A DNA stretch of 64,000 nucleotides. It comes from a virus. Below, piece after piece: positions 560-57,501 of this stretch; within the stretch, counting starts at the first letter, position 1, and each line of letters begins with the position of its first letter. The stretch lies in IMG/VR virus record IMGVR_UViG_3300022562_002256, positions 1 through 64,000 of that record; one strand, given 5' to 3'. Position numbers and translations under genes: made by a program. The notes beneath the pieces are model-generated. The model had not been told where the DNA came from and did not search any database. It saw only the letters and a program-made list of their open reading frames with translations.

Positions 560-575
560 TGCGAATTTTGTGCCA
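560..575 (-). promoter_or_regulatory. sigma54-type -24/-12 promoter
   Basis: TGGCACAAAATTCGCA; conserved C is 14 nt from ATG 547. Confidence 0.6.
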
Positions 576-699
576 TGACGCCCGTCACGGCCCCCTCCCA
601 GATGGACCGAGCAGTGGGCCCGCGATGACCGTAGGGTCGTGACGTCAAGGCCGCAAAAAGTATCGTGGAGCGACACGCCTCGCACGGCACCTCGCGCCA

Positions 700-1173
700 T
701 CAGCGCCGGCCTGGTGACGGCGCGAGGGTTGTGATGATGCCCCGGAACACGTGGGCCACCACCCATGGGCGGAGGGCGACGTGTGTGCCCAAGAACAACA
801 TCGGACACCTCGCCTCTAGACGAAAGATGAGCGCGCACTTGCCAGAGAACACGAACTGCACCGCATCGGGGACCGACCGCGCTGTGGCGTAGTTGATGGC
901 ATATTCCAAGGCGCGCCTGACGAGCGCCCGTTCTTCCTCGGGGAGGCGCTCCCACGCCGCCTCCCCTTCGGTCAAAAAAGTCTTGATGTGGCGCGCGACG
1001 CCTTGCTCGAAGCTGATGCGCTCGTCGCTGCGAGGGAAGTGGTCAAGTAGTTCAGCCAGCGCCAACACGTCGCCGGGGTGCTCGTCGAGGCTGTAGGCGG
1101 GGAACTCGACCCACTTGGATGCCAGAAGGCGATTGATGATGCGTTCCAGGGCGAGGTCGTCGACAACGTGCAT
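700..1173 (-). CDS. hypothetical protein
   Basis: Protein-like ORF; sigma54 motif at 1187-1202 is 15 nt from ATG 1173. Confidence 0.55.
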   Translation of the reverse strand: MHVVDDLALERIINRLLASKWVEFPAYSLDEHPGDVLALAELLDHFPRSDERISFEQGVARHIKTFLTEGEAAWERLPEEERALVRRALEYAINYATARSVPDAVQFVFSGKCALIFRLEARCPMLFLGTHVALRPWVVAHVFRGIITTLAPSPGRR

Positions 1174-1782
1174 TGTGGAGCCGTGATGCACACGTCGTGC
1201 CAGGACGTAGCCGTGCTGGGGCCGCCTGTTCGCGCCGCGCGATATCGACCAACCGGCGCAGCCATGCCCCGCACGCGGCGTGGAGCACGTCGGGGTCGGT
1301 GAGCAGGCTGGCCTGAGCGGCGCCCCACCTCAGCCACAGCCTGGCGGCGTTGAGACGTCCATCGTCGATGGCGCGGTCGACTCTTCGGATGGCCCACCGG
1401 AAGTCGTTCCACAGCGCTGCTTGCGGTCGAGCGCGTTGTTGGCGCTCGAAGTTAGGCGACCAGTTGGTGATGACGCCAACGGCCAGCGTGAATGGACGGA
1501 TACGATCGGACGATTGTCGCATACGCCAAATGTAACGCGACGGCGCCTGGTCGCAAGCATCGCTGTGGCCTTGACACGCGTCGCTGGCGGGTGTATGTTG
1601 TCGGTGTTGGTCGGTGGCCACAGCAACTCCCCCCAGGCGAGGTCGTCGACCAACATTGTAGCGCGGTGGTGTACTAGAGGCACACGAGGCTCATAACCTC
1701 GAGGACCGGGGCGGTTCCGGCGAGCGCTCCCAGTTGACAATGCACGTGAGTTGTCACCTGTGCCTGGATTGATCACCAGGCA

Positions 1783-1851
1783 GAGCCATTCGTCTAGGTA
1801 GGAGGACCAGCCAAGAATGGACTGAGCCGGGTGCGAGTCCCGGATGGCTCA
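1783..1851 (+). ncRNA. tRNA-like RNA lacking an anticodon loop
   Basis: 7-bp acceptor GAGCCAT/ATGGCTC, D-arm GTCT-AGGTAGGA-GGAC, T-arm CCGGG-TGCGAGT-CCCGG; anticodon arm CAGCCA-AGAA-TGGACTG has a 4-nt loop. Confidence 0.7.
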
Positions 1852-1963
1852 CGAGAAGCAGGTGTGGGCATCGCCTGGTGCACGGTGCCAGGAAGGGTTC
1901 AAAAGTGCCCATAGAGCAGCGCTTGCCGGTTCGGCTGCTCGCGTACATGAGGAACCGACACTA

Positions 1964-2022
1964 CGGGGCAGCAAGGACAGCACGGGTCATGCCGCGCGCG
2001 GGGTGCGATACCCCGTCCCCGA
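1964..2022 (+). ncRNA. degenerate tRNA-like RNA
   Basis: T-arm CGGGG-TGCGATA-CCCCG, 5-bp acceptor CGGGG/CCCCG, weak D and anticodon arms. Confidence 0.35.
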
Positions 2023-2163
2023 CTAGCCCAGAAGGGCTGTGGGCCGGTGGCGACAGGGCAGATGTCGACGTGAGAAGACCCTGCACCTCAAGCCAGCGAG
2101 ACATTCGCGCCCGGCGCCGCATGGTGGTGGTCAACGCGATCATCCGCCTCCCGCGGCTTAATG

Positions 2164-2228
2164 GGGTCCGTAGCTTAACGGCAGAGTCCGCGACGGCGGC
2201 GGTGCCGGTTCAATTCCGGCCGGATCCA
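2164..2228 (+). ncRNA. 65-nt tRNA-Ala-like RNA lacking an anticodon loop
   Basis: Acceptor GGGTCCG/CGGATCC with G3-U70 and A73, D-arm GCTT-AACGGCA-GAGT, T-arm GCCGG-TTCAATT-CCGGC; anticodon arm reduced to CCGC-GACG-GCGG. Confidence 0.75.
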
Positions 2229-2538
2229 CGACAGCCAGGCACAGGGACACGTGTGTGCCTGAAGGGACGGATAATCTGACGCGCCTAGGGCATGGCCGCA
2301 AGGCCGGAGAGTAGGGCACCGATGAAGGCACCGGCCGGTAGGAAAGACCTCGACGAAACCCTCCGTGGCACGTGAGCCACGCTCAAAAAACACCGCTGGC
2401 CCGGCGACCCTGGTGCACCGGGGTGAGGGCGACTGGCCTCGAGCACAAGGGTGCGGGCATGGGTGACGTTCCATGTCACGGGCGTGGCGCTATACCACGC
2501 GGGGCCACTGGCGATGGCGATTGCCGAGGAGGAACGCC

Positions 2539-4395: not shown

Positions 4396-4443
4396 TGCAT
4401 AAAGCGTGCCATTATCGTGGTGCTCCATGGCACAGCGCATGCA
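4396..4443. promoter_or_regulatory. back-to-back sigma54-type promoters
   Basis: TGGCACGCTTTATGCA (-, 4396-4411) and TGGCACAGCGCATGCA (+, 4428-4443; 15 nt to ATG 4457). Confidence 0.7.
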
Positions 4444-4456: not shown

Positions 4457-4801
4457 ATGGTTGACTGTCAAACATGCGGGGCGTGCTGCGCTTCCCTTGT
4501 GCATGACGCGGAGGGGATCCCGTCTCTATCATCCAAGGACCTCGCGCGCATGAGCACGCGCACCGTCCGTCTTTATGTCCACCGCGACAGCGCGGTCCAC
4601 ACGACGTGGAAGCGGCAGCGTGGCGGCCCGCTTGCGGGTTTGCGCGTCTGTGTGTGCAGCGCGCTGTCGGGCTCGCTCATGCACCGTGTGCGGTGCATCA
4701 TCTACGAGGAGCGACCCGACGTGTGCCGCGAATTCGTCCCAGGCGGGCCAGCGTGTTTGGCCGCCCGCGAAGACGTGTGTGAGGTGCTTGCCGTGGTCTA
4801 G
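4457..4801 (+). CDS. YkgJ family CxxCxxCC cysteine-cluster protein
   Basis: CQTCGACC...CSAL...CIIYEERPDVCREF. Confidence 0.85.
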   Translation: MVDCQTCGACCASLVHDAEGIPSLSSKDLARMSTRTVRLYVHRDSAVHTTWKRQRGGPLAGLRVCVCSALSGSLMHRVRCIIYEERPDVCREFVPGGPACLAAREDVCEVLAVV

Positions 4802-5574: not shown

Positions 5575-5604
5575 AACCACTCATCTATGCACGGACCGTG
5601 CCAA

Positions 5605-6358: not shown

Positions 6359-7019
6359 GACGGACACTCCCCCATCGTTGCCAGCCACGCCTCTCGGCGC
6401 CGCAGCGCTTCGCGCCCCTCTGCCGTGACATGATCCTCGTGGTCAAGCCAGCCCCACCGGCGTACGACAACGAGGACCTTGGCGTGTCCGCCTGCCGCAA
6501 CACGCCCACGCAGTCCGGTGTCAAGCGGTTGCCCAGCGAGTGAGCAGTGAAGCACAGCCGCTTGCGCGGGGGTGGGGACACCACACGGGGGGCGCAGGAG
6601 CCGGTAGCGAAGGGGGCGGGGGTTACGCCTCACGATGTGCCCTCCCGCGAGCGCAGTTCGTCGGCGGCCGCGTCCGTACGAGCTGAGGCGGGGTCGGGGG
6701 GCGCTGTGTCGTGTGCCATCTTTATCTCCTGCAGTAACACGAAGCACGTATCGTGCCAATCATGTCTCCCCGCCCTGGTGGCGCCCTACGGGACGACATG
6801 GGGCGCCATATGGCGCCCCCAGGGCGCGCATATTGTGCGCTACGTTTCGGAAATATTTACGTGGCCCTGATTCTGGCGTGTTGGCAGCATGTTTGCATGT
6901 GTCGTCCGTGGCTTGGATGACGCGCCCCGTGACGGTTCACGTAAGTTTTGCGGGGGAAACGGGGGTACTCCCGCCGGTGGCGTCGACCGGGCCCTCGTGG
7001 TACAGTCGGTGGCACACCC

Positions 7020-9651: not shown

Positions 9652-10037
9652 GCGGAGCGATGATCGAGCGGCACGTTTTGGAAGCAGCGGCACAGGCCGG
9701 ATTTGAGGCCACACGCGTGCTTTTTGACCTCACTGACGGTCAAGGTCGGCCACGGTGGAGCGAAGCCAGCGACGACCTGCAAAGTGGCGCGATTTTTTTG
9801 GCACAGTCCGTGCTAGAAACCGACTCGTCGAGCGGCGCTCACGACGCGGAATGCACTAAACTTCGCAACGACGGGTGGCGCTGGGGTCCTGTGTGGGATG
9901 GGGTGGCGAAGTTGTCGCCTTCGTTGGTGCCATATGCCGACTTGCTAGCGGACCGCCGCGCAGCAGGCGAGTTGTTCCGCAACGTCGTGGTGGCGTTTGT
10001 GGCGGCGTGGACCGCCGCCACCGAGGTGCCGGCATGA
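9648..10037 (+). CDS. RyR-repeat-like domain protein
   Basis: AHDAECTKLRNDGWRWGPVWDGVAKLSPSLVPYADL. Confidence 0.65.
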   Translation: MSGAMIERHVLEAAAQAGFEATRVLFDLTDGQGRPRWSEASDDLQSGAIFLAQSVLETDSSSGAHDAECTKLRNDGWRWGPVWDGVAKLSPSLVPYADLLADRRAAGELFRNVVVAFVAAWTAATEVPA

Positions 10038-13292: not shown

Positions 13293-13562
13293 TTATTGCA
13301 CGATGCGTGCCCGCTCGGCATACACTGCCCGGGCTCTGGTGCGCTGCTCTTCGAGCGCCCGGATGATCGGCGCGACCGTCTTGCGGACCAAGGCGTTCTG
13401 CCACCACGCCCCCTTCCAGTGGCCGCGCCGCTGGAGAAAGAATACGCCGTCGCACCATCGGATGCGCCGCCCTTCCTCCATCTCGTAGATTTCCCACTCG
13501 AGGCGTGCGGCGTTGTGGTTGGCGCCCCAGACGAAGCCCCCGGCACGGAGCGCCGCCGACAT
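13293..13562 (-). CDS. hypothetical protein
   Basis: Protein-like ORF. Confidence 0.5.
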   Translation of the reverse strand: MSAALRAGGFVWGANHNAARLEWEIYEMEEGRRIRWCDGVFFLQRRGHWKGAWWQNALVRKTVAPIIRALEEQRTRARAVYAERARIVQ

Positions 13563-14043: not shown

Positions 14044-14259
14044 TGCACGCTCCGTGCCACCGGCGTGGTGCCTGGATCATGCCAGCGCGCGCCGTGTGTT
14101 CAGCCTGGTTCTTCTGGACCATCGGCCCCTCAGCGCACCGTTTGCACGTCGACTTTGGCGAGTTGGTGAAGTTGGCCACTCCGCTGCCTGCGATCTAGCA
14201 CTCAAGTGGCTGCCATCAGGTGCCGGTAAATTCTGCCGGCCAAACGCAAAACGTGCGCC
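14044..14259 (-). repeat. intergenic cassette A, copy 1 (ends in sigma54 motif)
   Basis: Reverse complement of TTTGGCCGGCAGAATTTACCGGCACCTG...CAGCCACTTGAGTGCT...TTCACCAA...GCCAAAGTCGAC. Confidence 0.85.
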
Positions 14260-15241: not shown

Positions 15242-15518
15242 TGCACACGCCGTGCCACCTGTGGGGGCGTGGTGTTCAGTGTTGGCTGTGGCGTTATGCC
15301 ACGGATTTGTTCCAGGGTCGCGCGCCGACAGCCACTTGAGTGCTGGTTCTGCGACGTGTGGCGGTCTGCCACACCGTGGCAACATGCCACTCCCCGCCGG
15401 CGCGGCTAAGTGCTCGAAATCATTGACGCGACGTGGATCAGCACCGATCCACACACGTAAGGCAACACACGGCCAGCGCGCCGCGGGGCTACCACACCAC
15501 GATGGCACGGACAGTGCA
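15242..15518. repeat. intergenic cassette B, copy 1, between divergent sigma54 motifs
   Basis: Three GTGGC-N5-GCCAC palindromes, CAGCCACTTGAGTGCT core, GTGGATC-N6-GATCCAC; near-identical to 46649-46952. Confidence 0.85.
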
Positions 15519-17125: not shown

Positions 17126-17234
17126 GCCACGGCGGCATGCAAGCGCCGCGCCACCCCACGTTTAGGGCGGCAGTGGCACGGGTGTGCTATAGACCCCCCG
17201 ATGCCCGTCGACGCCAACGACCAGGAGGACTTCC

Positions 17235-22167: not shown

Positions 22168-22644
22168 ATGGGAGACGGCCGCCGGTTCACCGAATACGCA
22201 GCGTACATCCACCGCAACTTCCCCCGCGCTCGGCTCGTGGCCGACGTCGCGGGCGGTGCTGGCCGCCTCAACGTGGCGCTTTCTCGACTCGGCCACGATG
22301 TGACCACGCACGACCCCGCCGCGCCAGCCACGGCCCGAATCCGGGTTGTGCGGGCGCTGTTCACGGTCGATACACCGGGCGACTTCGATCTGATCGTCGG
22401 TCTGCATCCGGACGCGGCGACCGATGTGATCGTTGTGGTGGCGTGTGCCCGTCGTGTCCCGTTTGTGGTGGTGCCCTGCTGCGTCTTGCCGACGGCGACG
22501 CGATTCGACGGGCCCCGCAACGCTCGCGCATGGATGGCGCACCTCGAGCGCACGGCTGTGCGAGGTGGCATGCGTGTCGAGCGGGGGCGCCTACGCATCA
22601 CGGGGCAGGCCGACGTGCTCACCGGACGACCCGCTAGGGTCTAG
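22168..22644 (+). CDS. SAM-dependent methyltransferase-like protein
   Basis: VADVAGGAGRL motif I; DLIVGLHPDAATD...PFVVVPCC. Confidence 0.7.
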   Translation: MGDGRRFTEYAAYIHRNFPRARLVADVAGGAGRLNVALSRLGHDVTTHDPAAPATARIRVVRALFTVDTPGDFDLIVGLHPDAATDVIVVVACARRVPFVVVPCCVLPTATRFDGPRNARAWMAHLERTAVRGGMRVERGRLRITGQADVLTGRPARV

Positions 22645-23429
22645 CGGGTCACGTGTGGCCGAAGGATGCCTCGTAGTTTTGCCTTCGCGCTTACCTCGAT
22701 CTGGCGAATGCGCTCCCGTGACAGCCCCATGATGTTGCCGACCTCGGCGAGGGTCCGCACCTCTTTGCCCCCGGCCTTGTTCGGGTCAAACGGGGTGGGC
22801 GCACGGTCGAGGAATCGTAGCACGATGACCTTGCGCTCGGCGGGGCTCAGGCCGTTCAGTGCCGCTCGCACGGCCGCCGCGCGCTCGCTGGCGCTGGCCT
22901 GTTCTTCGGGTGTGTCTTGGGCGGTGCCGAGGATGTCGTGCTTGGTCTTGCCTCCTCCGTCATCAAAGGTCGCGACGTCGAGCGAGTCGGCATCACGGTC
23001 GCGAAGGTTCCAAGCGTCACGGACGAACCGATAGCTCGGCCTGGTCAACTCGGCTGCATCTTCGGCGGTGGCGGCGCCGCGCCGCTTTGCCGACCGGAGC
23101 GCATCCTGCAGGTAGACCGGCACGCGGACTTGTCGCTCGTGATTCTGGATCTCGCGTTGGATCCGATGCCGAACCCAATGAGCAGCGTACGTGCTCAGTT
23201 CGATCCCGCGAGAAGGGTCGTACTTGGCGGTCAACGCGTAAGCGAACCCCTGAAGCCCCGCTGCCATGAGGTCGTCGCGGAGGTGGCGCCGCCCGACCAG
23301 GAAGCGCTTAACGACCGACGCGACGAAGCCCTTGTGGGCCTTGATGATCGCATCTATCAGGCGGCGGTCCCCTGTCGCCTGAGCTTGTGCGATCAGCGCC
23401 CGGCCGGTTTCGCCGCGATAAGGGTTCAA
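22641..23429 (-). CDS. sigma70-family RNA polymerase sigma factor
   Basis: Region 2 DDLMAAG...YDPSRGIELSTYAAHWVRHRI and region 4 TLAEVGNIMGLSRERIRQIE; start TTG 23429 inferred. Confidence 0.92.
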   Translation of the reverse strand: MNPYRGETGRALIAQAQATGDRRLIDAIIKAHKGFVASVVKRFLVGRRHLRDDLMAAGLQGFAYALTAKYDPSRGIELSTYAAHWVRHRIQREIQNHERQVRVPVYLQDALRSAKRRGAATAEDAAELTRPSYRFVRDAWNLRDRDADSLDVATFDDGGGKTKHDILGTAQDTPEEQASASERAAAVRAALNGLSPAERKVIVLRFLDRAPTPFDPNKAGGKEVRTLAEVGNIMGLSRERIRQIEVSAKAKLRGILRPHVTR

Positions 23430-23500
23430 CTTATGTACCCCGACGGTAGCGCCCCATGCGTGAGGTGTGCGACTTCGTGGTCGATGACGCTGGGGTTCAT
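23426..23500 (-). CDS. putative 24-aa leader ORF coupled to the sigma gene
   Basis: ATG 15 nt from sigma54 motif 23514-23529; its TGA overlaps TTG 23429. Confidence 0.4.
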   Translation of the reverse strand: MNPSVIDHEVAHLTHGALPSGYIS

Positions 23501-23611
23501 GTCGTTTCATCGATGCACACCGCGTGCCACTGTAGCGTGCATCGACTTCGGGCCAGTCCTTCGTTCGACAAGCGGCCGCTCCCGCGCCGGGCAATCGTCA
23601 CGTCCCCGCCC

Positions 23612-23855
23612 GCGCACTTCTTGCGTTTAGCCGGCAGAATTTACCGGCACCTGCTGACAGCCGGTTGAGCGCTAGATCGTGCGCGTCGGAGTGGCCAACT
23701 TCACCAAGTGGCCAAAATCGGCGCGCAAACGGTGCGTGTTGGGGTGATAGTCCAGGATTGGTGTACCAACAGCGCCGGCCGGACCCCGCGAGATCGCGCG
23801 GCAACGCCGTGGTGGCACGCATGCAAGAGGACGCGCCGTTGGCACAGCGCGTGCA
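23612..23855 (+). repeat. intergenic cassette A, copy 2 (ends in sigma54 motif 23840-23855)
   Basis: GCGCACTTCTTGCGTTTAGCCGGCAGAATTTACCGGCACCTG shared with 49847 and 57257. Confidence 0.85.
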
Positions 23856-24333: not shown

Positions 24334-24470
24334 CAGCGAAACGCACACACGGTGGCGGCTCTCACCTACCCATCGGGATGCGACGGGTGTGCCCATGACC
24401 AGCAGCGCATAACGGCGCCGGGTCGGATGCGCGCCTGCTTGGTGGCACGGTTCGTGCTTAGCTGTGAGCC

Positions 24471-25463: not shown

Positions 25464-25517
25464 CCAACGCGATCACCCGAGGCGACAAGTGGCACGGCGC
25501 GTGCATATATGGTGGGC

Positions 25518-25964: not shown

Positions 25965-25994
25965 CGTGGCCCGATTCGTGCAAGGAGGTCGGTC

Positions 25995-26399
25995 GTGAAC
26001 ACCGACACAACTGTGATTGATGACACGGCCGTCCGAGCGTTTGGCACGCGCTGGAGCCTCGATGGAGGCGACGTCCTCGTCCTCATGGAGGTGGTGGGGC
26101 GTTGCTCTGTCGCTCTCGCTGCGGGGGTCGGTGGGAAGTGGCCGGGATGGGGCTACGCTGCGGTTTGCGAAGACGCCGACGACGGGCAGATGCCGCCCCT
26201 CGTGGACGTGCGCGTTCCGCTCTCGCGATGGGGCGAATTCGTAGCCGCCGTGGTGGATCTCCTCGTCGATGGTGAGGACGTCAGGATCTACCCGAACCGC
26301 CACTTCGCGGCCAAGTGTATGTTGGCCGGGGAGTGGGAAGACCACCCGATCGGCCAGGCGCTGCTCGGAACAGCAGACGCCGTCCGCCGAGTGGCATAG
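25995..26399 (+). CDS. hypothetical protein
   Basis: Motif 25967-25982 and AGGAGG upstream of GTG. Confidence 0.6.
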   Translation: MNTDTTVIDDTAVRAFGTRWSLDGGDVLVLMEVVGRCSVALAAGVGGKWPGWGYAAVCEDADDGQMPPLVDVRVPLSRWGEFVAAVVDLLVDGEDVRIYPNRHFAAKCMLAGEWEDHPIGQALLGTADAVRRVA

Positions 26400-26418
26400 T
26401 ACTTGCAGGGCAACCGTT

Positions 26419-32509: not shown

Positions 32510-32529
32510 GATTTGTGCTCCTTCCGTAG

Positions 32530-32651
32530 TGGACGCGGCGGGATTCGAACCCGCAATAGCCTCTGTTCAGTTACGCGATGGTGAGTCGCGCAGCCGGAGG
32601 CACCGCGGTTTCTAGCCGCAGCGGCTTTGCCCTTCTAGCCATCTCACGCCC
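32530..32651 (-). tRNA. atypical tRNA: anticodon AGA (Ser), Ala-type acceptor (G3-U70, A73), 49-nt variable arm, no encoded CCA
   Basis: GGGCGTG/CGCGTCC acceptor, GGCT/AGCC D-stem, TGCGG-CTAGAAA-CCGCG, GCGGG-TTCGAAT-CCCGC. Confidence 0.8.
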
Positions 32652-32664: not shown

Positions 32665-32680
32665 TGCATCATTCGTGCCA
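32665..32680 (-). promoter_or_regulatory. sigma54-type promoter of the atypical tRNA
   Basis: TGGCACGAATGATGCA; conserved C is 15 nt from tRNA G1. Confidence 0.75.
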
Positions 32681-33462: not shown

Positions 33463-34216
33463 GACTTCCTAGCCCGGTTCGCTGCTGCACGTCCTGTGCC
33501 ATACGGTCGCCACGTCGGTCTGCCTCAGCGCGCAGTTCGACCAACAGCGCATCGAGCGCTTCGAAGGCGTCGAACCCGTGGTAGTCGGCGATCGATTCAC
33601 GATCGATTCGCAAGTCATCGGCGTGCGACGAGATCATCGCCCTTACCGCCCGCACTTGCGGGCCGGTTAGGTCAGACCACTTGAAAGGTCGATGGTCTGC
33701 GCGCACCACCACGTACTCGTCGGGGTAGGCGGCGGCAAGCTCACGGTGCTTGCGCTCCTGCCCCTCTGCTGTTTCCGACTGGCTCATCGCCGTCATCCGT
33801 TGGTGTTGTTGGTTCGGGCGGTTTGGGGTCTCAGCCCGGGATTTGGCCATCCCATCGGCGTGGTCCGTAAGGATCGAAATGTAACGCAACGGGACATCTG
33901 CCTGGGTCAGCGATGGCGGGGAGTCCACGGCGTCGCTGTAGCGCGCGCAGGCGTCGATCAGGGAGGCGTAGGCGTCGTGGGCGGTGGGCTCGCGGTCGGT
34001 GGCGCACCACGCGAGCGCGGCGTCGACGACCGGCCGCATTCTCGCGATTTGCTGGTTCAAATACAGCTTGTCGCCCTCAAGCCCAGCGCGCTCCTCGGCT
34101 TGCGCTTCCTTGAGGCGCACGATCTCGGCATGGAGGTTGTCGGCCCGCCCGGTCTCGGCAGCGAGCTGCCCACGGAGCCGCTCGAGTTCTGCGCGCTGAT
34201 CGGCGTCCTGGGTCAT
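33440..34216 (-). CDS. coiled-coil hypothetical protein
   Basis: Long ORF with heptad N-terminus. Confidence 0.55.
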   Translation of the reverse strand: MTQDADQRAELERLRGQLAAETGRADNLHAEIVRLKEAQAEERAGLEGDKLYLNQQIARMRPVVDAALAWCATDREPTAHDAYASLIDACARYSDAVDSPPSLTQADVPLRYISILTDHADGMAKSRAETPNRPNQQHQRMTAMSQSETAEGQERKHRELAAAYPDEYVVVRADHRPFKWSDLTGPQVRAVRAMISSHADDLRIDRESIADYHGFDAFEALDALLVELRAEADRRGDRMAQDVQQRTGLGSHDPSSNR

Positions 34217-37154: not shown

Positions 37155-37440
37155 TGCACGCACCGTGCCATCGCGGGCGACGTGTGTGCGCGGGGGTCGA
37201 CATGGCGAGTTTCGGCCCAGTTGCCGCTCGACGCGTGGTGCGCTCGACCCCGGCTGGTCAGCCCATCACCACCAAGCGCGTAAGGCCGTGCGCGCTTGGT
37301 GCGTAGCGTCTTGCCAAAACCGCGCACAACTTTACGCGCCTACGTGGATCGACATAGATCCACGTCGGTGCGTTTTCCGGCCGCCGCATGCCATCGGGCG
37401 GCGCCGCCTTGTGTTCGGTCGCCGTGGCACGGTGCGTGCA
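37155..37440. repeat. hybrid A/B intergenic cassette between divergent sigma54 motifs
   Basis: Identical TGGCACGGTGCGTGCA motifs facing outward; ACGTGGATC-N6-GATCCACGT palindrome; GCCAAAACCGCGCAC. Confidence 0.7.
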
Positions 37441-37453: not shown

Positions 37454-37786
37454 ATGCGAACCAAGTCATCTACCCCCAAATCCGTCGCTCCCGCCTTTCC
37501 GTCCGTCGACGCGCTGTGCGCCGTGCTAAAGCGCATGTTTCTCGGAGCAGCCCTCGAACGTGTGGCGGCCCGGCGTGAGCTCGACTCGATCATCGACGCG
37601 GCCACCGTGGGCGAGCGCGCCCTGGTGGAGGCAATCCAAACGGCCTATGCACAGGGCATCATCGATGGCTCGACTGCGCGGGCACCGGAGGAACCTCGCC
37701 CGGGCAGCAAGGTGATTGGGGCCACTGCGCCGACGCCCCCGACTCCGCCCCGCCGTGTCAGCGGTACGACCCGCGTGTTGGCATAG
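37454..37786 (+). CDS. hypothetical protein
   Basis: ATG 15 nt from sigma54 motif. Confidence 0.55.
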   Translation: MRTKSSTPKSVAPAFPSVDALCAVLKRMFLGAALERVAARRELDSIIDAATVGERALVEAIQTAYAQGIIDGSTARAPEEPRPGSKVIGATAPTPPTPPRRVSGTTRVLA

Positions 37787-37933
37787 TACGTGCATGCACA
37801 TGGGGGGTCGTGTCAACTAGTCACCCACGGCAGGAGGATACCATGTAGCGAATAGCACCGACTCGTTACGCACGCCGGGGCGCGCCAGCGTCCGGCTCGT
37901 GCCTTCATCGCCGGGGCGTGCTATCGTCGCCCC

Positions 37934-45529: not shown

Positions 45530-45698
45530 ACGCCAGCAACTTGCACGATCCGCGCCACAACGGCTCAAGTGGTCAAGCCGCAGCGAACCGCTTCCGTCGC
45601 TCGGCGACCATCGCGTCTGCATACTTCGCGGCACTCTCTGCCATCGTCTCAAATGCGAGCGGAACGGGAAACCGCGCGTCGCGGCCACCATCAACCGG

Positions 45699-46648: not shown

Positions 46649-46952
46649 TGCACAGGCCGTGCCAACCGAGATGCCCCTGCCGGCGAGGTGTTCAGTGGTT
46701 TGGTGGTGTTCAGTATTGGCTGTGGCGTTATGCCACGGAGTTGTTCCGGGATCGCGTGCTGACAGCCACTTGAGTGCTGGCTCTGCGATGTGTGGCACTC
46801 CGCCACACCGTGGCAACATGCCACGCCCCGCCGACGCGGCCAAGTGCTCGAAATCATTGACGCGGCGTGGATCGACCCCGATCCGCCACCGTAAGGCAAC
46901 ATACGGCACGCCCCCAACAACGCCACAACCACCAGGTGGCACGGCGCGTGCA
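46649..46952. repeat. intergenic cassette B, copy 2, between divergent sigma54 motifs
   Basis: Near-identical to 15242-15518. Confidence 0.85.
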
Positions 46953-47398: not shown

Positions 47399-47664
47399 CC
47401 CCACCTGTCTGCGGCACGCATTATGCATGAGTTCTCGACGTCGGCGTCGGCGACAGCCGACCGACCCGGTAGGCGGTGACCAATCCGCACCGGTCATCCC
47501 ACCCCGGCCTCTCCGGAGGCACCCACGTCCCGCCACCAGGCGGCCCTAACTGAGCCTCCCGCAAGGTCACCTCTCCCCGCCGTGGTGCGGCGAGTGGGCG
47601 ACCACCGGGAGCGACGACGAAGGAGCATGATGTCAGCGCGAAGCGATGTCGCCGCGCTGACCTT

Positions 47665-49548: not shown

Positions 49549-49732
49549 GGGTGGTTTCATTCGTCGGTGGTTTCGTCCGCCAGATCCATGGCCAATTCGT
49601 AGTAGTGCAGGAGTTCCAGGTCGCGGTGCATTTCGTCGGTGGTGGTGTAGGTTCCGTAATCGCAGGTGGTGGTATCCATATGGGTGCCTCGTCGGTGGAT
49701 TGGTGGTTGCCGTCGTTACGCCCATAGACACT

Positions 49733-50079
49733 TGCACGCACCGTGCCAACAGGCAACGCGGGGTCGCCATGCCCACAAACCAGCGGCGATCTGGCGGAGT
49801 TGGCACTCCGCCCCGAACTTCGCGCGCTTGGATGACGACACATGGCGCGCACTTCTTGCGTTTAGCCGGCAGAATTTACCGGCACCTGATGGCAGCCACT
49901 TGAGTGCTACATCGTGAGCGCCACCGTAAGCGGATTCACCAACCTGCCAAAATCGACGCGCAAACGGTGCGTGTTGGGATCATAGTCCAGAATCGGCGGA
50001 GCGCCCGGCTGGACTCAGCCCCCGAAACCACGACGGTTTCGATATGGCGACGTAGAGCACCGTTGGCACGGTGCGTGCA
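49733..50079. repeat. intergenic cassette A, copy 3 (49847-50079), between divergent sigma54 motifs
   Basis: TGGCACGGTGCGTGCA at 49733-49748 (-) and 50064-50079 (+). Confidence 0.85.
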
Positions 50080-50539: not shown

Positions 50540-50634
50540 CTCCGGCGGTGCCGAGGACTTCGATGAATGGATGATAGTCCAGGATCGGCGTACCGACCGC
50601 GCCGCTGGCACAGCACGTGCATCAACTTCTAGAC

Positions 50635-51064: not shown

Positions 51065-54000
51065 TCATGCCGGCACCATAACCACGGCGTCGACCATGGC
51101 TAGGGTCGGCGGGCTGTCCGGCGGCACAAGGAGCACCGTGCCGAGCCCCAACTCCCTAACCGCGGCGCGCAGCATGCTGAACCACGCCTCAACGCATGGC
51201 CCCCGCAGCGGGCCTGATGTCTCGTCAAAGGCGAGGGTCGCCCCCGGCACCGCGCCCCACCGTTCGATCACTACTCCCGCTGTCGCCAGCGCGAGCGCGG
51301 TGCTCAGTAGCGCTCGCTCGCCTTTGGAGCACGCTCGCACCTCTCGTTCGCGTTGGTCCGGATGGCTGATCGCGATCCACCGCGCCTGCTCAATCGAGCG
51401 CTTACCCCGTGCGGCCGTCCGTGTTCCACGGTACTCGATCGACCACCCCGCACCATCGGCTGCGCGTAACAAGTCGGTTGCGATCTCGGCGATCTCCTCC
51501 CCGGCCAACTCCATCTCGAGCGCCTGGACCCCGTCACGGCCGAGTGCTTGCGCCAGCTCGCCCGCGTCCTCGGCCCGCCGCTCCAGTTCTTCGGTGGCCT
51601 CACGGACTCGGGCAGCCCTCGCTGCGGCATCCCGCTCCCGGGCGAGGCGGTCTACCGCAAGCGCAAGCCGTGTCGCGGCGACGGAGGCGCCCCGCGCCGC
51701 GTGTTCTACGTCAGCTTGGCCCACCGGGGCCGGCTCGTCACCAAAAGCCTGTAGCACGGCCGAAGCGTCGGTGTGTCGGGCTGTCGCGTCGGCGAGTTGG
51801 TCGTCGAGGAGGGCCACGCGCTCAGCCGCTCGGATGGCCTGGGTCGAGCGGGTCTGGGCGGCGACCAGCGCGCGATGACGTGCTTCCAGCGAATGCCGTT
51901 CCGTCGCCACCTCGTCGATGCTCCTCAATGCCGCTGCGCGCGCGGCCCTGAGCGGGGCGAGTTCGTTCGCGATGGTGACAAGACGCGCGGCGATCCCGCC
52001 GCGCGTTCTCTCAGCGGTGGCGATGGCAGCGTCGATGTCGGCCACCAGGCGAGTCGGTGCACGTGCGAGTCGTTCCCGTGCTGCGGCAAGTCGCGCAGCG
52101 GCGCTGGCAGCGCGTGATGTCAGGTCCACGATGTTCGGATGGGTGTAGGCATCATCGGCGGCGATGGCACGGCGAGAGCGTCGCCTCACCTCGGCCACGC
52201 TGCTCGATGCCACGTCGGGAGATGCCGCGACAATCGCTGAGGCGGCGATCCGGCCGATGTCGGTGAGCGCGGTGCGCAAGGGGGTCACGCGCCCGGTCTG
52301 AGCGACGTGCGTGGCTGCTTCCAGCGCGGCGGCGGCGGCTCTCTCGGATGCCTCCAACTCCGGGAGGCTCTCCCGCAGCCTCTCGGCACCCTCGGCCTGG
52401 GTTCGCTCCGCACGCAAAGCGTCGAGGCGGTGGTCGATGTCTGCAAGCGCGCGGGCTGCCTCGTGTTCGGCGTCGCGACTGGAGCGAATCGCCTCGTCGG
52501 CTGTGCTGACGTCAGCTCGCAAAACGCTCTCCCGCTGGCGCAGCACATCGAGCGCTTCAACCACCTCCTCGATGTGTTCGGGGGGGGGCGCTGCGCAATC
52601 GGCCGCTTGTCTTGCCGCCGCGAGCTCGGTGGTCAGCCGTTCGACTCGCACTGCCGCCGCGTCGGCGGTGGTGCAAAGCGCGCGCCACTGAGTCCACCGC
52701 GCCGCGTCGACGCGGGCTTGAGCGGCGGCGCAGTCGGCGGTGTGGCTTGCGGCCGTCGCATCGACAACCGCTCGTTCGGCACCCGTAACGTCGACGGGAC
52801 CGATCGCTGTGCTCTCTGTGCGCTTAGCGGCGACATCCTTGTCGATCGCGGCCCGCGCCGCCCGTGCCGCCGCTGCCCATGCTTCATAGTTCCCGGCGCC
52901 CAGGATGCCCAATAACGCGGCTTTCAGCCCCGAGTCGTACAGCGTGCCGATCCCATCGCTCCCGTCCCATAGAAAGGCGAACGCGAGCAACAGCACCGGG
53001 TCGGGCAGGTGCTGGCGCGCCCACTCACGGAACGCCTGGCGCCCGCCGACGAACGTGGCGGCGTCCTCGCCCAACGGGCAAACACGCACGGTGCCACCGC
53101 CATCGGTCATTTCGTGATGGATTGTCCATGCCCCTGTGGCGGTGACAACCTCCACCTCGAGATACGGGTTGGGGCCGGTGACCATCCTGTCGAACGCGCC
53201 GTGTGTGGGGCTTTCCTCTCGCAGCGCCGCGAGCATGAGACCGAGCAGCGTGCTCTTCCCCGCCCCGTTCCCGCCCGCGAGTGCCACGATCGGCGGCATA
53301 TCGCGCACCAGATACTCGGCCTCGCCGACGAAAGGGCCGAGCCCCCGACACGCTACACGCTCGAATCGCACCAGTCCCCCAGCGTCTTCCGGGGATGTCG
53401 CCACCATCTCATCGAGCATGGCGAGCACCCGCTCCCGACGTGCCGGCCGTCGACCAATGGCTGTCCAATAGGCGTCGAGCCTATCGTGGACGGACGGAAC
53501 CTTGTCGATGCCCGCCGCACGCGCACGGGTGACCCGTTGGGGCACAGGTTCAAGTTTGACCGCGACCGCCCCCGCGGCGAGGATGTCGTCTCGCGCCGAC
53601 TCGGCGGCGGCCACGATGCACGCGCGGTTGGCGTCGGTGGTGGTGTAACGAAGCCGCACGTCCGCACCTCGACACGACGCCAGCGTCGGTGTCGCGTCGC
53701 CTGCAGCGTGCTCTCGCCCGTAGGACAACACCAGACCCGCCCCGGCTACCCAGTTGCCAACAAGCAGAACCAGCGGCGTGGCGGGGGCGATGCGCCGCTC
53801 GAACGATACACGACGCCCGTCGACGTGAACAAGTACATAGCCCTTTGGCCCCAGCTCGCCGTATGTCGTGGCATACGGCGCCCCCGGGTAGCAGGCTGGC
53901 CGCCCCCCGATGAGCCAATCCTGCGCCGCGTGGACGTGGCCGAGTAGGTAAGCGTCGGCCGCCGCGCGAGCCAGGTCGTCGTTTGTCACGTCGAGGTCGC

Positions 54001-54559
54001 CCCGCCCTTGCGCCGGCTGGTCGTTCGACAGCCGTGCCCCGGCGACCATGGCATGCCCCACCAAGATGCGCGCGGCGTCAGTGCCAACGATGGCTGCCCC
54101 CAAGTCGTCCAGGATCGCGCGCATCTCTTCGCGAAGCGCAGCCGTTGTCGGTGTGCCCCCCCGCGCCTGGACGCGTCGGAGCAAGTCTGCACGCCGGAGA
54201 TGAGGCAGACAGGCAAGGCGCACGCCGGCCACGTCTATCACTCCGGGCTGCTCTACCACCGTAACGGGGTGCGCCGTGCCGAAGGAGTCGAGGATCGCCA
54301 GGTCTCGTTCGACGTCGTGATTGCCCGCGACCACGACGAGCGGGGCTGTGCGGGTGGCTTCTCTGCAAAACCACCGCGCCACGAGCCGCTCGTCGGGGCG
54401 CGAACCGGAGTGATACACGTCCCCCGCGACTACGGTGGCGGCGACGTTCGCTCGCGCGGCGTCATCAAGGATCCACTCCAAGATGCGTTGGCACTCGGAC
54501 AGCCGACCACCAGGCCGCGCCGAGATGTGAATGTCCGCGAGCGCGGCGATGGTCGTCAT
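51065..54559 (-). CDS. fused SbcD (Mre11) nuclease - SbcC (Rad50) ATPase
   Basis: DIH, GD, GNHD, GHVH phosphoesterase motifs; GGNGAGKST Walker A; coiled coil; CSKGE signature; FDE Walker B. Confidence 0.92.
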   Translation of the reverse strand: MTTIAALADIHISARPGGRLSECQRILEWILDDAARANVAATVVAGDVYHSGSRPDERLVARWFCREATRTAPLVVVAGNHDVERDLAILDSFGTAHPVTVVEQPGVIDVAGVRLACLPHLRRADLLRRVQARGGTPTTAALREEMRAILDDLGAAIVGTDAARILVGHAMVAGARLSNDQPAQGRGDLDVTNDDLARAAADAYLLGHVHAAQDWLIGGRPACYPGAPYATTYGELGPKGYVLVHVDGRRVSFERRIAPATPLVLLVGNWVAGAGLVLSYGREHAAGDATPTLASCRGADVRLRYTTTDANRACIVAAAESARDDILAAGAVAVKLEPVPQRVTRARAAGIDKVPSVHDRLDAYWTAIGRRPARRERVLAMLDEMVATSPEDAGGLVRFERVACRGLGPFVGEAEYLVRDMPPIVALAGGNGAGKSTLLGLMLAALREESPTHGAFDRMVTGPNPYLEVEVVTATGAWTIHHEMTDGGGTVRVCPLGEDAATFVGGRQAFREWARQHLPDPVLLLAFAFLWDGSDGIGTLYDSGLKAALLGILGAGNYEAWAAAARAARAAIDKDVAAKRTESTAIGPVDVTGAERAVVDATAASHTADCAAAQARVDAARWTQWRALCTTADAAAVRVERLTTELAAARQAADCAAPPPEHIEEVVEALDVLRQRESVLRADVSTADEAIRSSRDAEHEAARALADIDHRLDALRAERTQAEGAERLRESLPELEASERAAAAALEAATHVAQTGRVTPLRTALTDIGRIAASAIVAASPDVASSSVAEVRRRSRRAIAADDAYTHPNIVDLTSRAASAAARLAAARERLARAPTRLVADIDAAIATAERTRGGIAARLVTIANELAPLRAARAAALRSIDEVATERHSLEARHRALVAAQTRSTQAIRAAERVALLDDQLADATARHTDASAVLQAFGDEPAPVGQADVEHAARGASVAATRLALAVDRLARERDAAARAARVREATEELERRAEDAGELAQALGRDGVQALEMELAGEEIAEIATDLLRAADGAGWSIEYRGTRTAARGKRSIEQARWIAISHPDQREREVRACSKGERALLSTALALATAGVVIERWGAVPGATLAFDETSGPLRGPCVEAWFSMLRAAVRELGLGTVLLVPPDSPPTLAMVDAVVMVPA

Positions 54560-54617: not shown

Positions 54618-55742
54618 CTACGCCGCAGGCGGCGGGGGCCGATCGGAGCCCGGCACCTGCGGCGGCGCCCCGTCCGTCAACCGCGGATCAACGGGGGCTG
54701 TGACGCCTGCCTTTTCGCACTCCTCGGCGAACCGGGCGTTGAATGTGGCGCCGAGAGACACCATGCGCTCAGGGCTCACGCCAAATTTCTTGAATGCCGC
54801 GAAGAGCCCCTTCTTGGCTGACGCGAGGGCGGCGAACCGTTTCTCGTTCGAGTCTGACATAACTTGTGGCTCCGACGCCTTCTGGATGGCCGCAGCCAGC
54901 GCCTCGCCCACCGTCCGAGGCTCGGCCGGCGTTGGCGCGTCACTAAGCCAGTCAGCGATGATTTGAGCGAAATCATCTCCTGGATTCATAAACACGTCCC
55001 CGGGGGGGAGCAAGTCACACCGCGTCTTGGCAACAATGAGCCGCACCTCGGTTCGCGGCTTCCGCCCGGCCGTTTTCGCGGCAGTGACGTCCGAGACGAT
55101 TGGGACCTGCACCAATTCGCAGAAGAGGTCGGGCTCGTACTCGATGCCCTTCCGTGCGACCGGTCCCAGTCCAACCTTGGTGGGCTCGAGCTTACCCTTA
55201 TCGGTTTGGCTAATTACGTAGTCCATCTCCGATCGAAGGGTGCCTATGATATGGCACGGGCTCTCCAGAATACGCTGGACAAAGCGTGTGTGCGCCGGGG
55301 ACATCTTCCGCCAACCGGTCGAAAAGGCGTTCTTTGACGTGGACCCCTCGGTGATCCTGTCCACCGACTCGAGAACCCCGCCGATGCCAGCCCACACAGG
55401 GCTGAACGAGTCAACAACGATGACGCCGGCCCGCTGCGCTTCGCAGAAGTCGAGGGCCGCTGTATATGCCTCGATTGACTGGTCGTCTGCTGGCATGGGG
55501 ACGTGTTTGAATTGGAACCCGGTGCCCCGGCGAGGAGAGTACGCGTACTTCAGCAGCGACTTGTTCTCCACGTCGACTGCGTACACCGGCCCGAGATTCA
55601 GCGTCCGTACGAGGAACGTCGCGACCGAGAGGGCGGTGTAGCTCTTGCCACTTCCCGCAGGGCCAGCCAGAAATAGGCGCAGGAGAATGCCCTCCCGCGT
55701 TGCATCACGTGCTTGAAACTGGTACTTTTGACTGGTTTGCAT
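54618..55742 (-). CDS. AAA_24 / Sak4-like phage recombination ATPase
   Basis: GPAGSGKS...VVDSFS.VW.G.GGVLE...GW...HIIGTLR...VG..P..RKGIEYE. Confidence 0.85.
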   Translation of the reverse strand: MQTSQKYQFQARDATREGILLRLFLAGPAGSGKSYTALSVATFLVRTLNLGPVYAVDVENKSLLKYAYSPRRGTGFQFKHVPMPADDQSIEAYTAALDFCEAQRAGVIVVDSFSPVWAGIGGVLESVDRITEGSTSKNAFSTGWRKMSPAHTRFVQRILESPCHIIGTLRSEMDYVISQTDKGKLEPTKVGLGPVARKGIEYEPDLFCELVQVPIVSDVTAAKTAGRKPRTEVRLIVAKTRCDLLPPGDVFMNPGDDFAQIIADWLSDAPTPAEPRTVGEALAAAIQKASEPQVMSDSNEKRFAALASAKKGLFAAFKKFGVSPERMVSLGATFNARFAEECEKAGVTAPVDPRLTDGAPPQVPGSDRPPPPAA

Positions 55743-55783
55743 GCCAGAAGCATAACCACTGCATTCATGCATGCAACAGACCG

Positions 55784-56251
55784 TCACCGGCTCACACGGT
55801 CGCCGCGGCACCGCTTCCGCGAGCGCGGACCGCTGCTGCCGGGCCCGTCACCGGCGAGATGCACGCGGATGGAGTCGCCCCCGGTCGTAAACGTGCCATC
55901 CGCGGCCGGTCGCAGCCGAGCGGGCATGAGCACCACCACGCCCCCAGAAACGTCGAGGCGGCGCTCCCCCGCGTCCGGAAGCACATCAAGAAGCGCTGCC
56001 CGCAGCGCTGCCGACCGCTGACTATCCGTGGCGATGCGTCGCTCTACCTCAACCAGCTCGGCGGCGAGTGCAGTGGCCCGCGCGCGTAGCTCACCCGGCG
56101 TAGCCGGCCACCCGTCGTCGATGATGGCAGTGTCGGGCCCACCCGTCGCCCCGAGCGAGAAGGGCCCCGACCGCATGGTGTCCGGAGCGTCCGCGGCGCC
56201 CTCCGGCGTTGTGTCTGGGCACAGATCGTCGACCAAAAGTGAGGTGCTCAT
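55784..56251 (-). CDS. hypothetical protein (Gp157/Gam-like coiled coil possible)
   Basis: Upstream of Sak4; sigma54-like motif 14 nt from ATG. Confidence 0.45.
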   Translation of the reverse strand: MSTSLLVDDLCPDTTPEGAADAPDTMRSGPFSLGATGGPDTAIIDDGWPATPGELRARATALAAELVEVERRIATDSQRSAALRAALLDVLPDAGERRLDVSGGVVVLMPARLRPAADGTFTTGGDSIRVHLAGDGPGSSGPRSRKRCRGDRVSR

Positions 56252-56263
56252 GCCGCGCGACCA

Positions 56264-56364
56264 TGCACCATCCGTGCCGCTCTGGTGGTGACGCCACCGC
56301 CGCTAGCACGCGACCGCGAAAAATCAACTGGATCGACGGTGCACCATGTGGCACACTGCGTGCA
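56264..56364. promoter_or_regulatory. divergent sigma54-type promoters
   Basis: CGGCACGGATGGTGCA (-) and TGGCACACTGCGTGCA (+), each 14 nt from an ATG. Confidence 0.7.
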
Positions 56365-56376
56365 TGAGGTTGAGCC

Positions 56377-56772
56377 ATGGAACCGAACGTCGCCACCACG
56401 GCCCCCGCACGAAGGGGCCGCCCCCGTAAGCCCGCCCCGCCCCCTCCGGACCCCGCTCGGCTCGAAGCCGCTCTCGAGATCGCCAGAAGCCTCGAGCCCG
56501 GGTCACTGGTGTTTGTCGAGTATGTCGCTGCGTCAGCGGCGCACCCCAGCCCCGCCGCGCTGCGGTCGGTTGCGGCTGGATTCCCCCAGAGTTACTACGT
56601 CGGGACATACCTCGGGTACCACCTAACGGCCGCCGGGCACGTTGTCCTGCGGCTGGAGGTCATCAACCGAGGGGGCGAGCGCCGCGCCATCAACCCGCTC
56701 AAGGGCGACTTGCGCGCGGTCCGGGTCATACACCCCGCCCCGCCCCCCGACGCTATGCCCATTGCGTCGTGA
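56377..56772 (+). CDS. hypothetical protein with AT-hook-like motif
   Basis: RRGRPRKP. Confidence 0.55.
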   Translation: MEPNVATTAPARRGRPRKPAPPPPDPARLEAALEIARSLEPGSLVFVEYVAASAAHPSPAALRSVAAGFPQSYYVGTYLGYHLTAAGHVVLRLEVINRGGERRAINPLKGDLRAVRVIHPAPPPDAMPIAS

Positions 56773-57021
56773 TGCCCGCCCGCTGGTACATCCCTGGGTC
56801 TGCGATTGCTGCGGCAGTCCGACGAGTGGCACCGGGTAAGCGGCCTCCGCTCGCCCTCCTTGCCCCGCTGGAGCGGCTTTGTCTGCGTGCCGCGGGGAGA
56901 CTGCCTCACGTTCCCATGGAATCTGCCAGGACCCCCGGCCGTGCGAGCGCGGGGTACAAGAAGGCGCTCGTGAAAGCCATCAGGCGTGCGTGCTGTGCCC
57001 CCGACTTACGGAGGTGGTAAG

Positions 57022-57249
57022 ATGGACAGGTTGCCTCGCGGCGAGTTCGTGCAAACGTGGTTTGACGGAGGTCGAGACGGATCCGGGTTCACATTCGGCG
57101 TCATCGAGGCCAGCGGGCCCACGGCGTTCGTGGTCAGATGGGAAAGCGGTAACCGACACCGCCGCAAACACGGGCATCCCGACATCCACCGCATCACCGA
57201 TCCAGAGTTGCGCCTCGAGGCGGCGCGCACACTGAAACGAACGACCTAG
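57022..57249 (+). CDS. hypothetical protein
   Basis: GGAGGT SD. Confidence 0.55.
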   Translation: MDRLPRGEFVQTWFDGGRDGSGFTFGVIEASGPTAFVVRWESGNRHRRKHGHPDIHRITDPELRLEAARTLKRTT

Positions 57250-57256
57250 ACCCAAA

Positions 57257-57501
57257 CGCACATCCTGCGTTTAGGCGGCAGAATTTACCGGCACCTGGCG
57301 GCAGCCACTTGAGTGCTACGTCGTGAGTGTCACCGTAAGCGGATTCACCAACTAGGCAAAATCGACGCGCAAGGCGTGCGCGCTGGGCCAACTTTCCAGA
57401 CTTGGCGGGCCGCGCGCGTCGGCCGGGCGCCGTCAAAACATCGCGCAAATTGAGGGATCGCCCCAAGAGCACAAGCGCCGATGGTTGGCACGCCACGTGC
57501 A
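57257..57501 (+). repeat. intergenic cassette A, copy 4 (ends in sigma54 motif 57486-57501)
   Basis: TTTAGGCGGCAGAATTTACCGGCACCTG...CAGCCACTTGAGTGCT...CCGTAAGCGGATTCACCAA. Confidence 0.85.

Follow-up and report, generated by a model that had tools for sequence, protein, structure and literature searches.

Which RNA polymerase reads a short motif that recurs along the genome of an uncultured phage, and how would the resulting transcripts be translated? The question is raised by IMG/VR virus record IMGVR_UViG_3300022562_002256, a complete genome of 198,045 bp with 144-bp direct terminal repeats and 66% GC. The stretch analyzed here, its first 64 kb, is called the window. A first-pass annotation of the window had interpreted the motif as the -24/-12 promoter of the alternative sigma factor RpoN (σ54), used for the transcription of accessory genes into nearly leaderless mRNAs. 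Our analyses make it likely that the σ54 holoenzyme of the host reads the motif as a promoter. σ54 is the one bacterial sigma factor that is unable to start transcription without an ATP-driven activator, and phages would therefore be expected to avoid it.

The degenerate pattern proposed earlier was present at 33/33 of the coordinates listed for it. Its enrichment over shuffled sequence was weak (75 matches in the window versus 57.6 ± 9 expected, with 2/100 shuffles reaching 75), whereas that of the tight core TGGCACN6TGCA, at one mismatch or fewer, was strong (40 versus 6.65 ± 2.8, with 0/100 shuffles reaching 40). In the whole 198-kb genome, the exact core occurred 47 times versus 3 for the reversed control. 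An iterated position weight matrix (PWM) gave 102 genomic matches, from which removal of reverse-strand shadows left 77 oriented sites, 34 of them within the window (about 390 per Mb in the phage). PWM sites absent from the original list are 9799+, 61627- and the marginal 58769-, and two listed sites are weak, namely 6882+ and 25967+ (TGGCCC, with a Shine-Dalgarno [SD] sequence). The consensus of the 77 sites is TGGCACG-g-NN-cGTGCA-a/t, with frequencies of T.90, G.99, G.97, C 1.0, A.92, C.88 and G.83 in the first element and T.99, G 1.0, C 1.0 and A.86 in the second. It agrees with the σ54 consensus yTGGCACGrnnnTTGCw, as printed in a passage of PMC12754779, at every strongly conserved position except -15. 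Spacer length was N6 at 47 sites, and each of N2-N5 and N7-N10 was found at only 0-2. Rigid spacing of the elements is a defining property of σ54 promoters. No -35/-10 elements were found around the 77 sites, where flanking positions hold about 0-0.3 bits of information, and the sites consistently point the same way as the downstream gene. Consensus, GG-N10-GC spacing, co-orientation and the lack of -35/-10 elements thus bear out the RpoN-type architecture that had been proposed.

The position of the start codon was also found to be constrained. With d defined as the number of nucleotides from the C of the -12 GC to the A of the ATG, an ATG lies at d=12-16 in 42/77 sites (null, 6.8%), including 20 at d=15 and 16 at d=14, and 36 of these 42 read CATG. 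Within the window, a start codon follows the C by 13-16 nt at 23 of the 33 listed sites, which matches the earlier count of 22; 20 are ATG, one is a plausible GTG and two are doubtful TTG codons with a negative coding score. The further claim that most lack an intervening SD also stands, as SD-like sequence was seen at 3 of these listed sites and, across the genome, in 3/44 near-leaderless starts. Alignment of these starts on the ATG gives the context G/A(-3)-N-C(-1)-ATG-A, with an A-rich second codon. The purine at -3 moves with the ATG in the d=14 and d=15 groups alike, which puts it 11-12 nt after the C. Canonical σ54 transcription starts about 12 nt downstream of this C, so the simplest reading of the conserved purine is a 3-nt leader, 5'-RNC-AUG; from promoter geometry, a leader of 0-3 nt is predicted. 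Initiation at the A of the ATG, after the conserved C, is a possible alternative. We infer that translation of these mRNAs is of the leaderless type, without an SD. AGGAGG-type SDs are present where the leader is longer (15503+, 50064+, 142293-, 154758- and others), indicating that the host does use SD sequences and that the motif behaves not like a translation signal but like a promoter.

A search of other viruses bears on the identity of the factor that reads the motif. IMG/VR was scanned for the promoter core followed by N12-13 and CATG. Record IMGVR_UViG_3300046780_000362 (hereafter G419; 62 kb, 66% GC) had 12 exact cores versus 0 in controls, and the PWM found 17 sites in it, clustered at 9-24 kb, 11 of which have an ATG at d=13-15. 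Comparison of its proteins with those of the phage (open reading frames [ORFs] of at least 45 aa) gave 0 blastp matches at E<1e-3. A further record, IMGVR_UViG_3300037424_000909, has three such sites and a σ70-family gene 33% identical to that of the phage. The same signal and spacing in unrelated viruses argue for a reader that is encoded by the host. Close cultured phages are essentially lacking, whether compared by DNA or by baseplate J, and no relatives were found with DnaN or portal peptide seeds.

The host is probably a member of the Polyangiaceae, a family of myxobacteria. Among the best 120 relatives of the phage DnaN in 5.8 billion proteins, the named ones are all Polyangiaceae (Polyangium, Sorangium; 36-40% identity), as are all named top matches of its DnaB (Sorangium, Polyangium, Minicystis, Chondromyces; 51-56% identity). 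DUF5131 was uninformative for host identification, with about 40% identity across many phyla. The Polyangiaceae-like genomes reached via DnaN have one rpoN each, and one of 7.5 Mb encodes 38 AAA+ domains of bacterial enhancer-binding proteins (bEBPs; E<=1e-40). In 41 genomes of this family, the core followed by N12-13 and CATG was found 22 times, versus 3 for the reversed control and 3 when the CATG was moved to N17-18. The CATG opens an ORF of 179 to >500 codons in 6/6 chromosomal matches examined, and the GC content at third codon positions of these ORFs is 0.81-0.90 in 5/6 and 0.64 in the sixth. The signal is weak at the phylum level (Myxococcota, 48 versus about 21; Pseudomonadota, 7 versus 3) and clear only at the family level with the offset control. 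Judged from these genomes, the near-leaderless σ54 layout appears to be a genuine but sparse feature of Polyangiaceae chromosomes, with a density of about 0.08 per Mb versus about 180 per Mb in the phage.

Within the phage genome, the sites are concentrated in two blocks of small ORFan genes. Their density is 5-6 per 10 kb at 0-60 kb and 3-7 per 10 kb at 100-180 kb. Few occur in the replication region at 60-100 kb, and the head region at 180-198 kb has none. Judged by Pfam matches, baseplate genes occupy 7-19 kb of the window and genes for a Mu-like portal and a protease 178-183 kb of the genome, and the replication block at 64-105 kb encodes RecD2-like, DEAD, DnaB and SNF2 helicases. Other genes of the window encode a σ70-family factor, a methylase, DUF5131, the DNA polymerase III beta clamp (DnaN), an AAA_24 protein and a 1164-aa SbcCD-like fusion. 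Nearly all genes directly served by the sites are ORFans that match nothing in Pfam or PHROG. To this extent the earlier description of the targets as accessory genes was apt; it did not cover the phage sigma gene, the AAA_24 and SbcCD genes, tRNA-Tyr/DnaN or a tRNA-like RNA, which are also preceded by such sites.

Several of these exceptions can be described individually. Promoter 56264- heads a recombination operon in the order ORF155, AAA_24 and SbcCD. The last gene (51065-54559, minus strand) is a single ORF that joins an SbcD-like metallophosphoesterase (residues 3-247) with an SbcC-like ABC ATPase containing a coiled coil. Downstream of both 46937+ and 47412+ are tRNA-Tyr and DnaN. After 46937+, about 700 nt without a convincing ORF precede tRNA-Tyr, and the sequence GGCGTAACGACGG occurs at the predicted 5' ends of transcripts from two promoters without an ATG, 46937+ and 49733- (leaders 46953-47660, plus strand, and 49680-49732, minus strand). 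These leaders could be non-coding RNAs or share a regulatory function. The tRNA-like RNA at 32527-32651 (minus strand) has a 7-bp acceptor stem, a canonical GGUUCGAAUCC T-arm and a long variable arm. It was missed by ARAGORN and by Rfam at the gathering threshold, and it gave a weak tRNA-clan match (tmRNA model, E 1.9e-5) and a fold z-score of -2.2. The distance from the C of promoter 32665- to G1 of this RNA is 15 nt, and G1 again follows a C. Separately, a tRNA at 2164-2228 (plus strand) was detected by Rfam (41 bits) and missed by ARAGORN; no σ54-type promoter adjoins it. Finally, 23514- precedes a mini-ORF, the TGA of which shares bases with the TTG that starts the σ70-family gene (TTGA), an arrangement that likely reflects translational coupling. 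This promoter suggests a cascade in which host σ54 would drive expression of a phage sigma factor.

Our analyses also revealed enhancer-like cassettes, which are new here and were missed by the first-pass annotation. Many of the sites form divergent pairs 260-330 bp apart, and the DNA between them is a repeated cassette, copies of which are 85-95% identical at distant loci. Two families were distinguished. Family A has four copies in the genome (two in the window), each with three perfect GTGGC-N5-GCCAC palindromes, and family B has about nine (four in the window), each with two GCGCA-N5-TGCGY dyads, placed 83-119 bp upstream of a promoter, one dyad for each member of the divergent pair. The genome contains 23 GCGCA-N5-TGCGC dyads with a perfect GCA-N5-TGC core, and 15 of them are within 400 bp upstream of a promoter versus about 3 expected, a count in which the cassette copies are not independent of one another. 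Perfect dyads also occur 68-155 bp upstream of three promoters outside full-length family B cassettes, 6743-, 152508- and 140114+ (the last beside a partial cassette copy). The first of these loci has an additional feature: at 6800-6827, ahead of the baseplate operon, the 20-bp perfect palindrome GGGGCGCCATATGGCGCCCC and the perfect dyad sit together in the 123-bp gap between 6743- and 6882+. In total, 21/77 promoters flank a cassette, and 37/77 are within 1.5 kb of one versus 18.6 expected (maximum of 31 in 2000 randomizations). When cassette cores were used as DNA probes in IMG/VR, they gave zero matches or chance matches in unrelated low-GC contigs. The features of the window are listed in the table.

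Table. Predicted σ54-type promoters and associated features in the window (d as defined in the text; ORF positions are those of the window).
Feature	Position	Strand	Remarks
Predicted σ54-type promoter	560..575	-	ATG d=14, ORF 2-547
Predicted promoter	1187..1202	-	ATG d=15, ORF 700-1173 (157 aa, ORFan)
Predicted promoter	4396..4411	-	Back-to-back with 4428+; longer leader, ATG not nearby
Predicted promoter	4428..4443	+	ATG d=15, ORF 4457-4801
Predicted promoter	5588..5603	-	PWM 24.6
Predicted promoter	6743..6758	-	Perfect GCGCA-N5-TGCGC dyad 68 bp upstream (6826)
Doubtful site	6882..6897	+	TGGCAG, under PWM threshold; upstream of baseplate operon
Promoter-like site	9799..9814	+	Within baseplate operon; not listed previously
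Predicted promoter, GGGCAC variant	13297..13312	-	ATG d=15, ORF 12663-13283
Predicted promoter	14044..14059	-	ATG d=15, ORF 13752-14030; beside family B cassette
Enhancer-like cassette, family B	14133..14258		
Predicted promoter	15242..15257	-	ATG d=16, ORF 14877-15227; divergent pair with 15503+
Enhancer-like cassette, family A	15288..15430		Three perfect GTGGC-N5-GCCAC palindromes: 15288, 15358, 15376
Predicted promoter	15503..15518	+	33-nt leader, SD AAGGGAG, ORF 15550-15792
Predicted promoter, TGGCGC variant	17138..17153	-	ATG d=14, ORF 16787-17125
Phage σ70-family factor	22641..23429	-	RpoD/RpoS-like; regions 2 and 4
24-codon mini-ORF	23426..23500	-	TGA stop overlaps TTG start of sigma gene (TTGA)
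Predicted promoter	23514..23529	-	ATG d=15, start of 24-codon mini-ORF before sigma gene
Enhancer-like cassette, family B	23612..23737		GCGCA-N5-TGCGT dyads: 83 bp from 23514-, 117 bp from 23840+
Predicted promoter	23840..23855	+	ATG d=15, ORF 23869-24333
Predicted promoter	24443..24458	+	ATG d=14, ORF 24471-25463 (330 aa, ORFan)
Predicted promoter	25490..25505	+	ATG d=14, ORF 25518-25964
Weak site, TGGCCC	25967..25982	+	GTG d=14 after AGGAGG; probably SD-dependent
Predicted promoter, TGGCAT, TTGCA	26392..26407	+	ATG d=13, ORF 26419-26736
tRNA-like RNA	32527..32651	-	Cloverleaf, long variable arm, canonical T-arm; weak tRNA-clan match
Predicted promoter	32665..32680	-	Heads tRNA-like RNA; G1 of the RNA at d=15
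Predicted promoter	33486..33501	-	ATG d=25 after GGAAG, ORF 32875-33462
Predicted promoter	37155..37170	-	ATG d=15, ORF 36944-37141; divergent pair with 37425+
Predicted promoter	37425..37440	+	ATG d=15, ORF 37454-37786
Predicted promoter, TGGCAT	37779..37794	+	Target probably 37934-39001, long leader
Predicted promoter, TGGCGC	45542..45557	-	ATG d=14, ORF 44960-45529 (weak phosphoribosyltransferase-like)
Predicted promoter	46649..46664	-	ATG d=14, ORF 46358-46636
Enhancer-like cassette, family A	46722..46864		Palindromes at 46722, 46792, 46810
Predicted promoter, no ATG	46937..46952	+	Predicted transcript starts near GGCGTAACGACGG, toward tRNA-Tyr and DnaN
Predicted promoter, CGGCAC	47412..47427	+	~240 nt upstream of tRNA-Tyr (47664-47751)
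Predicted promoter with leader	49733..49748	-	GGCGTAACGACGG in common with 46937+; small ORF 49557-49679
Enhancer-like cassette, family B	49847..49972		Dyads: 99 bp from 49733-, 106 bp from 50064+
Predicted promoter	50064..50079	+	30-nt leader, AGGAGG SD, ORF 50108-50539
Predicted promoter	50606..50621	+	ATG d=15, ORF 50635-50811
Predicted promoter, CGGCAC	56264..56279	-	ATG d=14, ORF 55784-56251, then AAA_24 (54618-55742), SbcCD-like fusion (51065-54559)
Predicted promoter	56349..56364	+	ATG d=14, ORF 56377-56772
Enhancer-like cassette, family B	57257..57381		Perfect dyad at 57367, 119 bp from 57486+
Predicted promoter	57486..57501	+	ATG d=15, ORF 57515-57724
Weaker site, TGGCGC, TTGCA	61627..61642	-	AGGAGGAAG leader; not listed previously

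The statement that neither rpoN nor a GAFTGA activator is encoded in the window was confirmed, and the search was extended to the whole phage genome with the same outcome. PF00158, PF04552 and PF04963 gave nothing above noise in the genome, no σ54 core-binding or DNA-binding domain was found in it at E<=1, and no GAFTGA-like loop was present in any of its frames. The phage does encode three σ70-family factors, RpoD/RpoS-like and with regions 2 and 4; the genes for the two outside the window are in the replication block (genome 77556-78608 and 95272-96246, both plus strand). A k-mer enrichment analysis gave nothing convincing as a second promoter motif for the motif-free modules, and no recurrent promoter motif was found for the phage sigma factors. 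A PAPS-reductase/DUF3440 (CysH-like) gene lies at genome 124649-125791 (minus strand).

The σ54 interpretation draws on the consensus, the rigid spacing, the co-orientation with genes, the purine at the start distance, the restriction of SDs to long leaders, and the recurrence of the design in an unrelated virus and on Polyangiaceae chromosomes. Based on these observations, we predict that about 77 transcription units of the phage, 34 of them in the window, are headed by promoters for host σ54. Transcription would begin at the conserved purine and yield a 3-nt leader, 5'-RNC-AUG, that is translated without an SD. The motif-poor replication and head-tail modules are presumably served by σ70-type promoters and the three phage σ70-family factors. 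Host enhancer-binding proteins would activate transcription at the cassettes, whose NtrC-type dyads lie about 70-120 bp upstream, and the remaining promoters would be activated from a distance or from solution. Activation by host bEBPs is proposed because the phage lacks an activator and about a quarter of the promoters flank dyad cassettes; it is the weakest step of the scheme.

A number of observations weigh against this interpretation. Position -15 is G (.75) where the σ54 consensus has T, and a perfect 5-N3-5 palindrome, GCACG-N3-CGTGC, is embedded in the motif consensus. σ54 requires an AAA+ activator, yet the phage has neither a bEBP nor a GAFTGA loop, and 31/77 promoters are more than 3 kb from any cassette. 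Paired GTGGC-N5-GCCAC palindromes had one match only, and that intragenic, on 101 sampled Polyangia genomes, and a dyad followed by N75-105 and the promoter was found 0 times versus 2 in controls on 41 sampled Polyangiaceae-like genomes. Lastly, the host assignment is based on two replication genes with 36-56% identity.

Some of these points are accommodated by other explanations. Independently of any conventional host bEBP, an ORFan product of the phage, acting from solution as a non-AAA+ activator or bypass factor, could directly unlock the σ54 holoenzyme, with the cassettes serving as operators for a phage regulator that times two sub-regulons. This would explain why most promoters are without an enhancer and why no bEBP is encoded, and we regard it as an unlikely alternative; if true, it would be a new way to activate σ54, comparable in kind to the appropriation of σ70 by T4 AsiA/MotA. 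Quite improbable, in our judgment, is that the sites bind the σ54 holoenzyme and are mostly silent, either as decoys that titrate σ54 away from host programs while the phage DNA is being replicated or as insulators or roadblocks separating gene cassettes. The σ54 holoenzyme forms stable closed complexes without an activator, the phage encodes none, many sites have no recognizable enhancer, and the sites are about 1000 times as dense as on host chromosomes, all of which such a role would fit. However, titration requires neither co-orientation nor a fixed ATG distance of 14-15 nt, a start purine or SDs limited to long leaders, features which imply that the sites are used for expression.

Slightly less probable again is a promoter for a polymerase encoded or modified by the phage, through a σ70-family factor of its own or an unrecognized σ54-like protein. 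The three phage sigma factors, the many ORFans and a -12 element of GTGCA rather than TTGCA are in keeping with it. The 5-6 bp gap, which places the two elements one helical turn apart, is incompatible with -35/-10 geometry and makes the motif unreadable by σ70-type factors of the phage; no σ54 domain was detected, the same motif is found in G419, which has no protein in common with the phage, and the same layout is found on Polyangiaceae chromosomes. The phage σ70-family factors themselves were rejected as readers on account of element geometry and of G419. The embedded palindrome, perfect in the consensus, would suit the operator of a dimeric regulator recognizing GCACG-N3-CGTGC, which we consider very unlikely. 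Conservation is as high in the asymmetric flanks (left, T1 and G2; right, A16) as in the palindrome core, the half-site positions 6/12 and 7/11 vary independently, orientation to the gene is strict with no other promoter signal nearby, and again G419 shares no protein. We place equally little weight on a role in RNA, in which the motif would stand 13 nt ahead of the AUG instead of an SD, as a hairpin, a processing site or the binding site of a translational regulator. The fixed AUG distance, the orientation dependence and a potential 5-bp stem fit this role, but compensated deviations at the two variable stem pairs number 0/24 (6/12) and 1/41 (7/11), with about 15/41 deviations at pair 7/11 being G-U wobbles and the rest mismatches. 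For this lack of covariation, a hairpin or cruciform reading was rejected. In addition, the motif is found, at variable distance, ahead of non-coding RNAs and of long leaders with an SD, and a near-complete match to the σ54 consensus with rigid spacing would be improbable by chance.

If promoters for host σ54 are indeed what the phage carries, much of its expression would be tied to the signaling state of the host, since Polyangiaceae possess dozens of activators. There would also be a class of σ54 transcripts translated without an SD, sparse on Polyangiaceae chromosomes too. The phage would further provide a compact, highly repeated natural set of promoters and enhancers for studies of activator specificity in myxobacteria, and the presence of this design in an unrelated viral contig as well suggests that the strategy is general and has been overlooked.

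The phage sites can be compared with those of known systems. They have the same strongly conserved positions and GG-N10-GC spacing as bacterial σ54 (-24/-12) promoters, including those described in passages on the myxobacterial katB/ahpC-PexR system (PMC12754779) and the NmpR regulon (PMC11841059). Divergent intergenic regions of <350 bp and interrupted palindromes about 70-120 bp upstream are further points of likeness to myxobacterial σ54 systems, and the three tandem dyads of the family A cassette resemble the three CACCG-n6-CGGTG repeats to which the activator PexR of Myxococcus xanthus binds (PMC12754779). In contrast to bacterial σ54 promoters, the phage sites have G for T at -15, mostly abut the start codon and are mostly without a private enhancer. 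The enhancer site of NmpR, an NtrC-like protein of M. xanthus, is GCGCA-N5-TGCGC according to the part of PMC11841059 dealing with it. Family B dyads, which lie 68-155 bp upstream of promoters, agree with this site at 9-10/10 positions and have a perfect GCA-N5-TGC core; unlike NmpR sites, which are pairs 14-15 bp apart (5-50 bp allowed), they are single, about 111 bp apart, with one per divergent promoter. An mRNA counts as leaderless if its 5' untranslated region is no longer than 5 nt (Beck & Moll 2018, as cited in PMC12754779). The phage transcripts would resemble leaderless mRNAs in the lack of an SD, the strong preference for ATG, the A-rich second codon and the predicted leader of 0-3 nt. 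To our knowledge, known leaderless mRNAs come from σ70-family promoters. They have been proposed in myxobacteria, from a σA promoter, and we found no description of σ54 promoters yielding leaderless mRNAs in the literature on σ54 with bacteriophage and leaderless mRNA or myxophage. Pseudomonas phage YuA reportedly has about three σ54 promoters, in its particle and lysis region. YuA uses host σ54 for part of its transcription, and one σ54-like promoter was re-identified by ONT-cappable-seq, as stated in a passage of PMC10914365; what had been called an unusual phage strategy is therefore rare and has a precedent. Compared with YuA, the present phage has about 77 sites, which stay clear of the structural module, are combined with near-leaderless starts and in many cases lie beside enhancer-like cassettes. 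Thus, phage promoters read by host σ54 are known, and what is new is their scale, the near-leaderless coupling, the repeated cassettes and a phage sigma gene under such a promoter.

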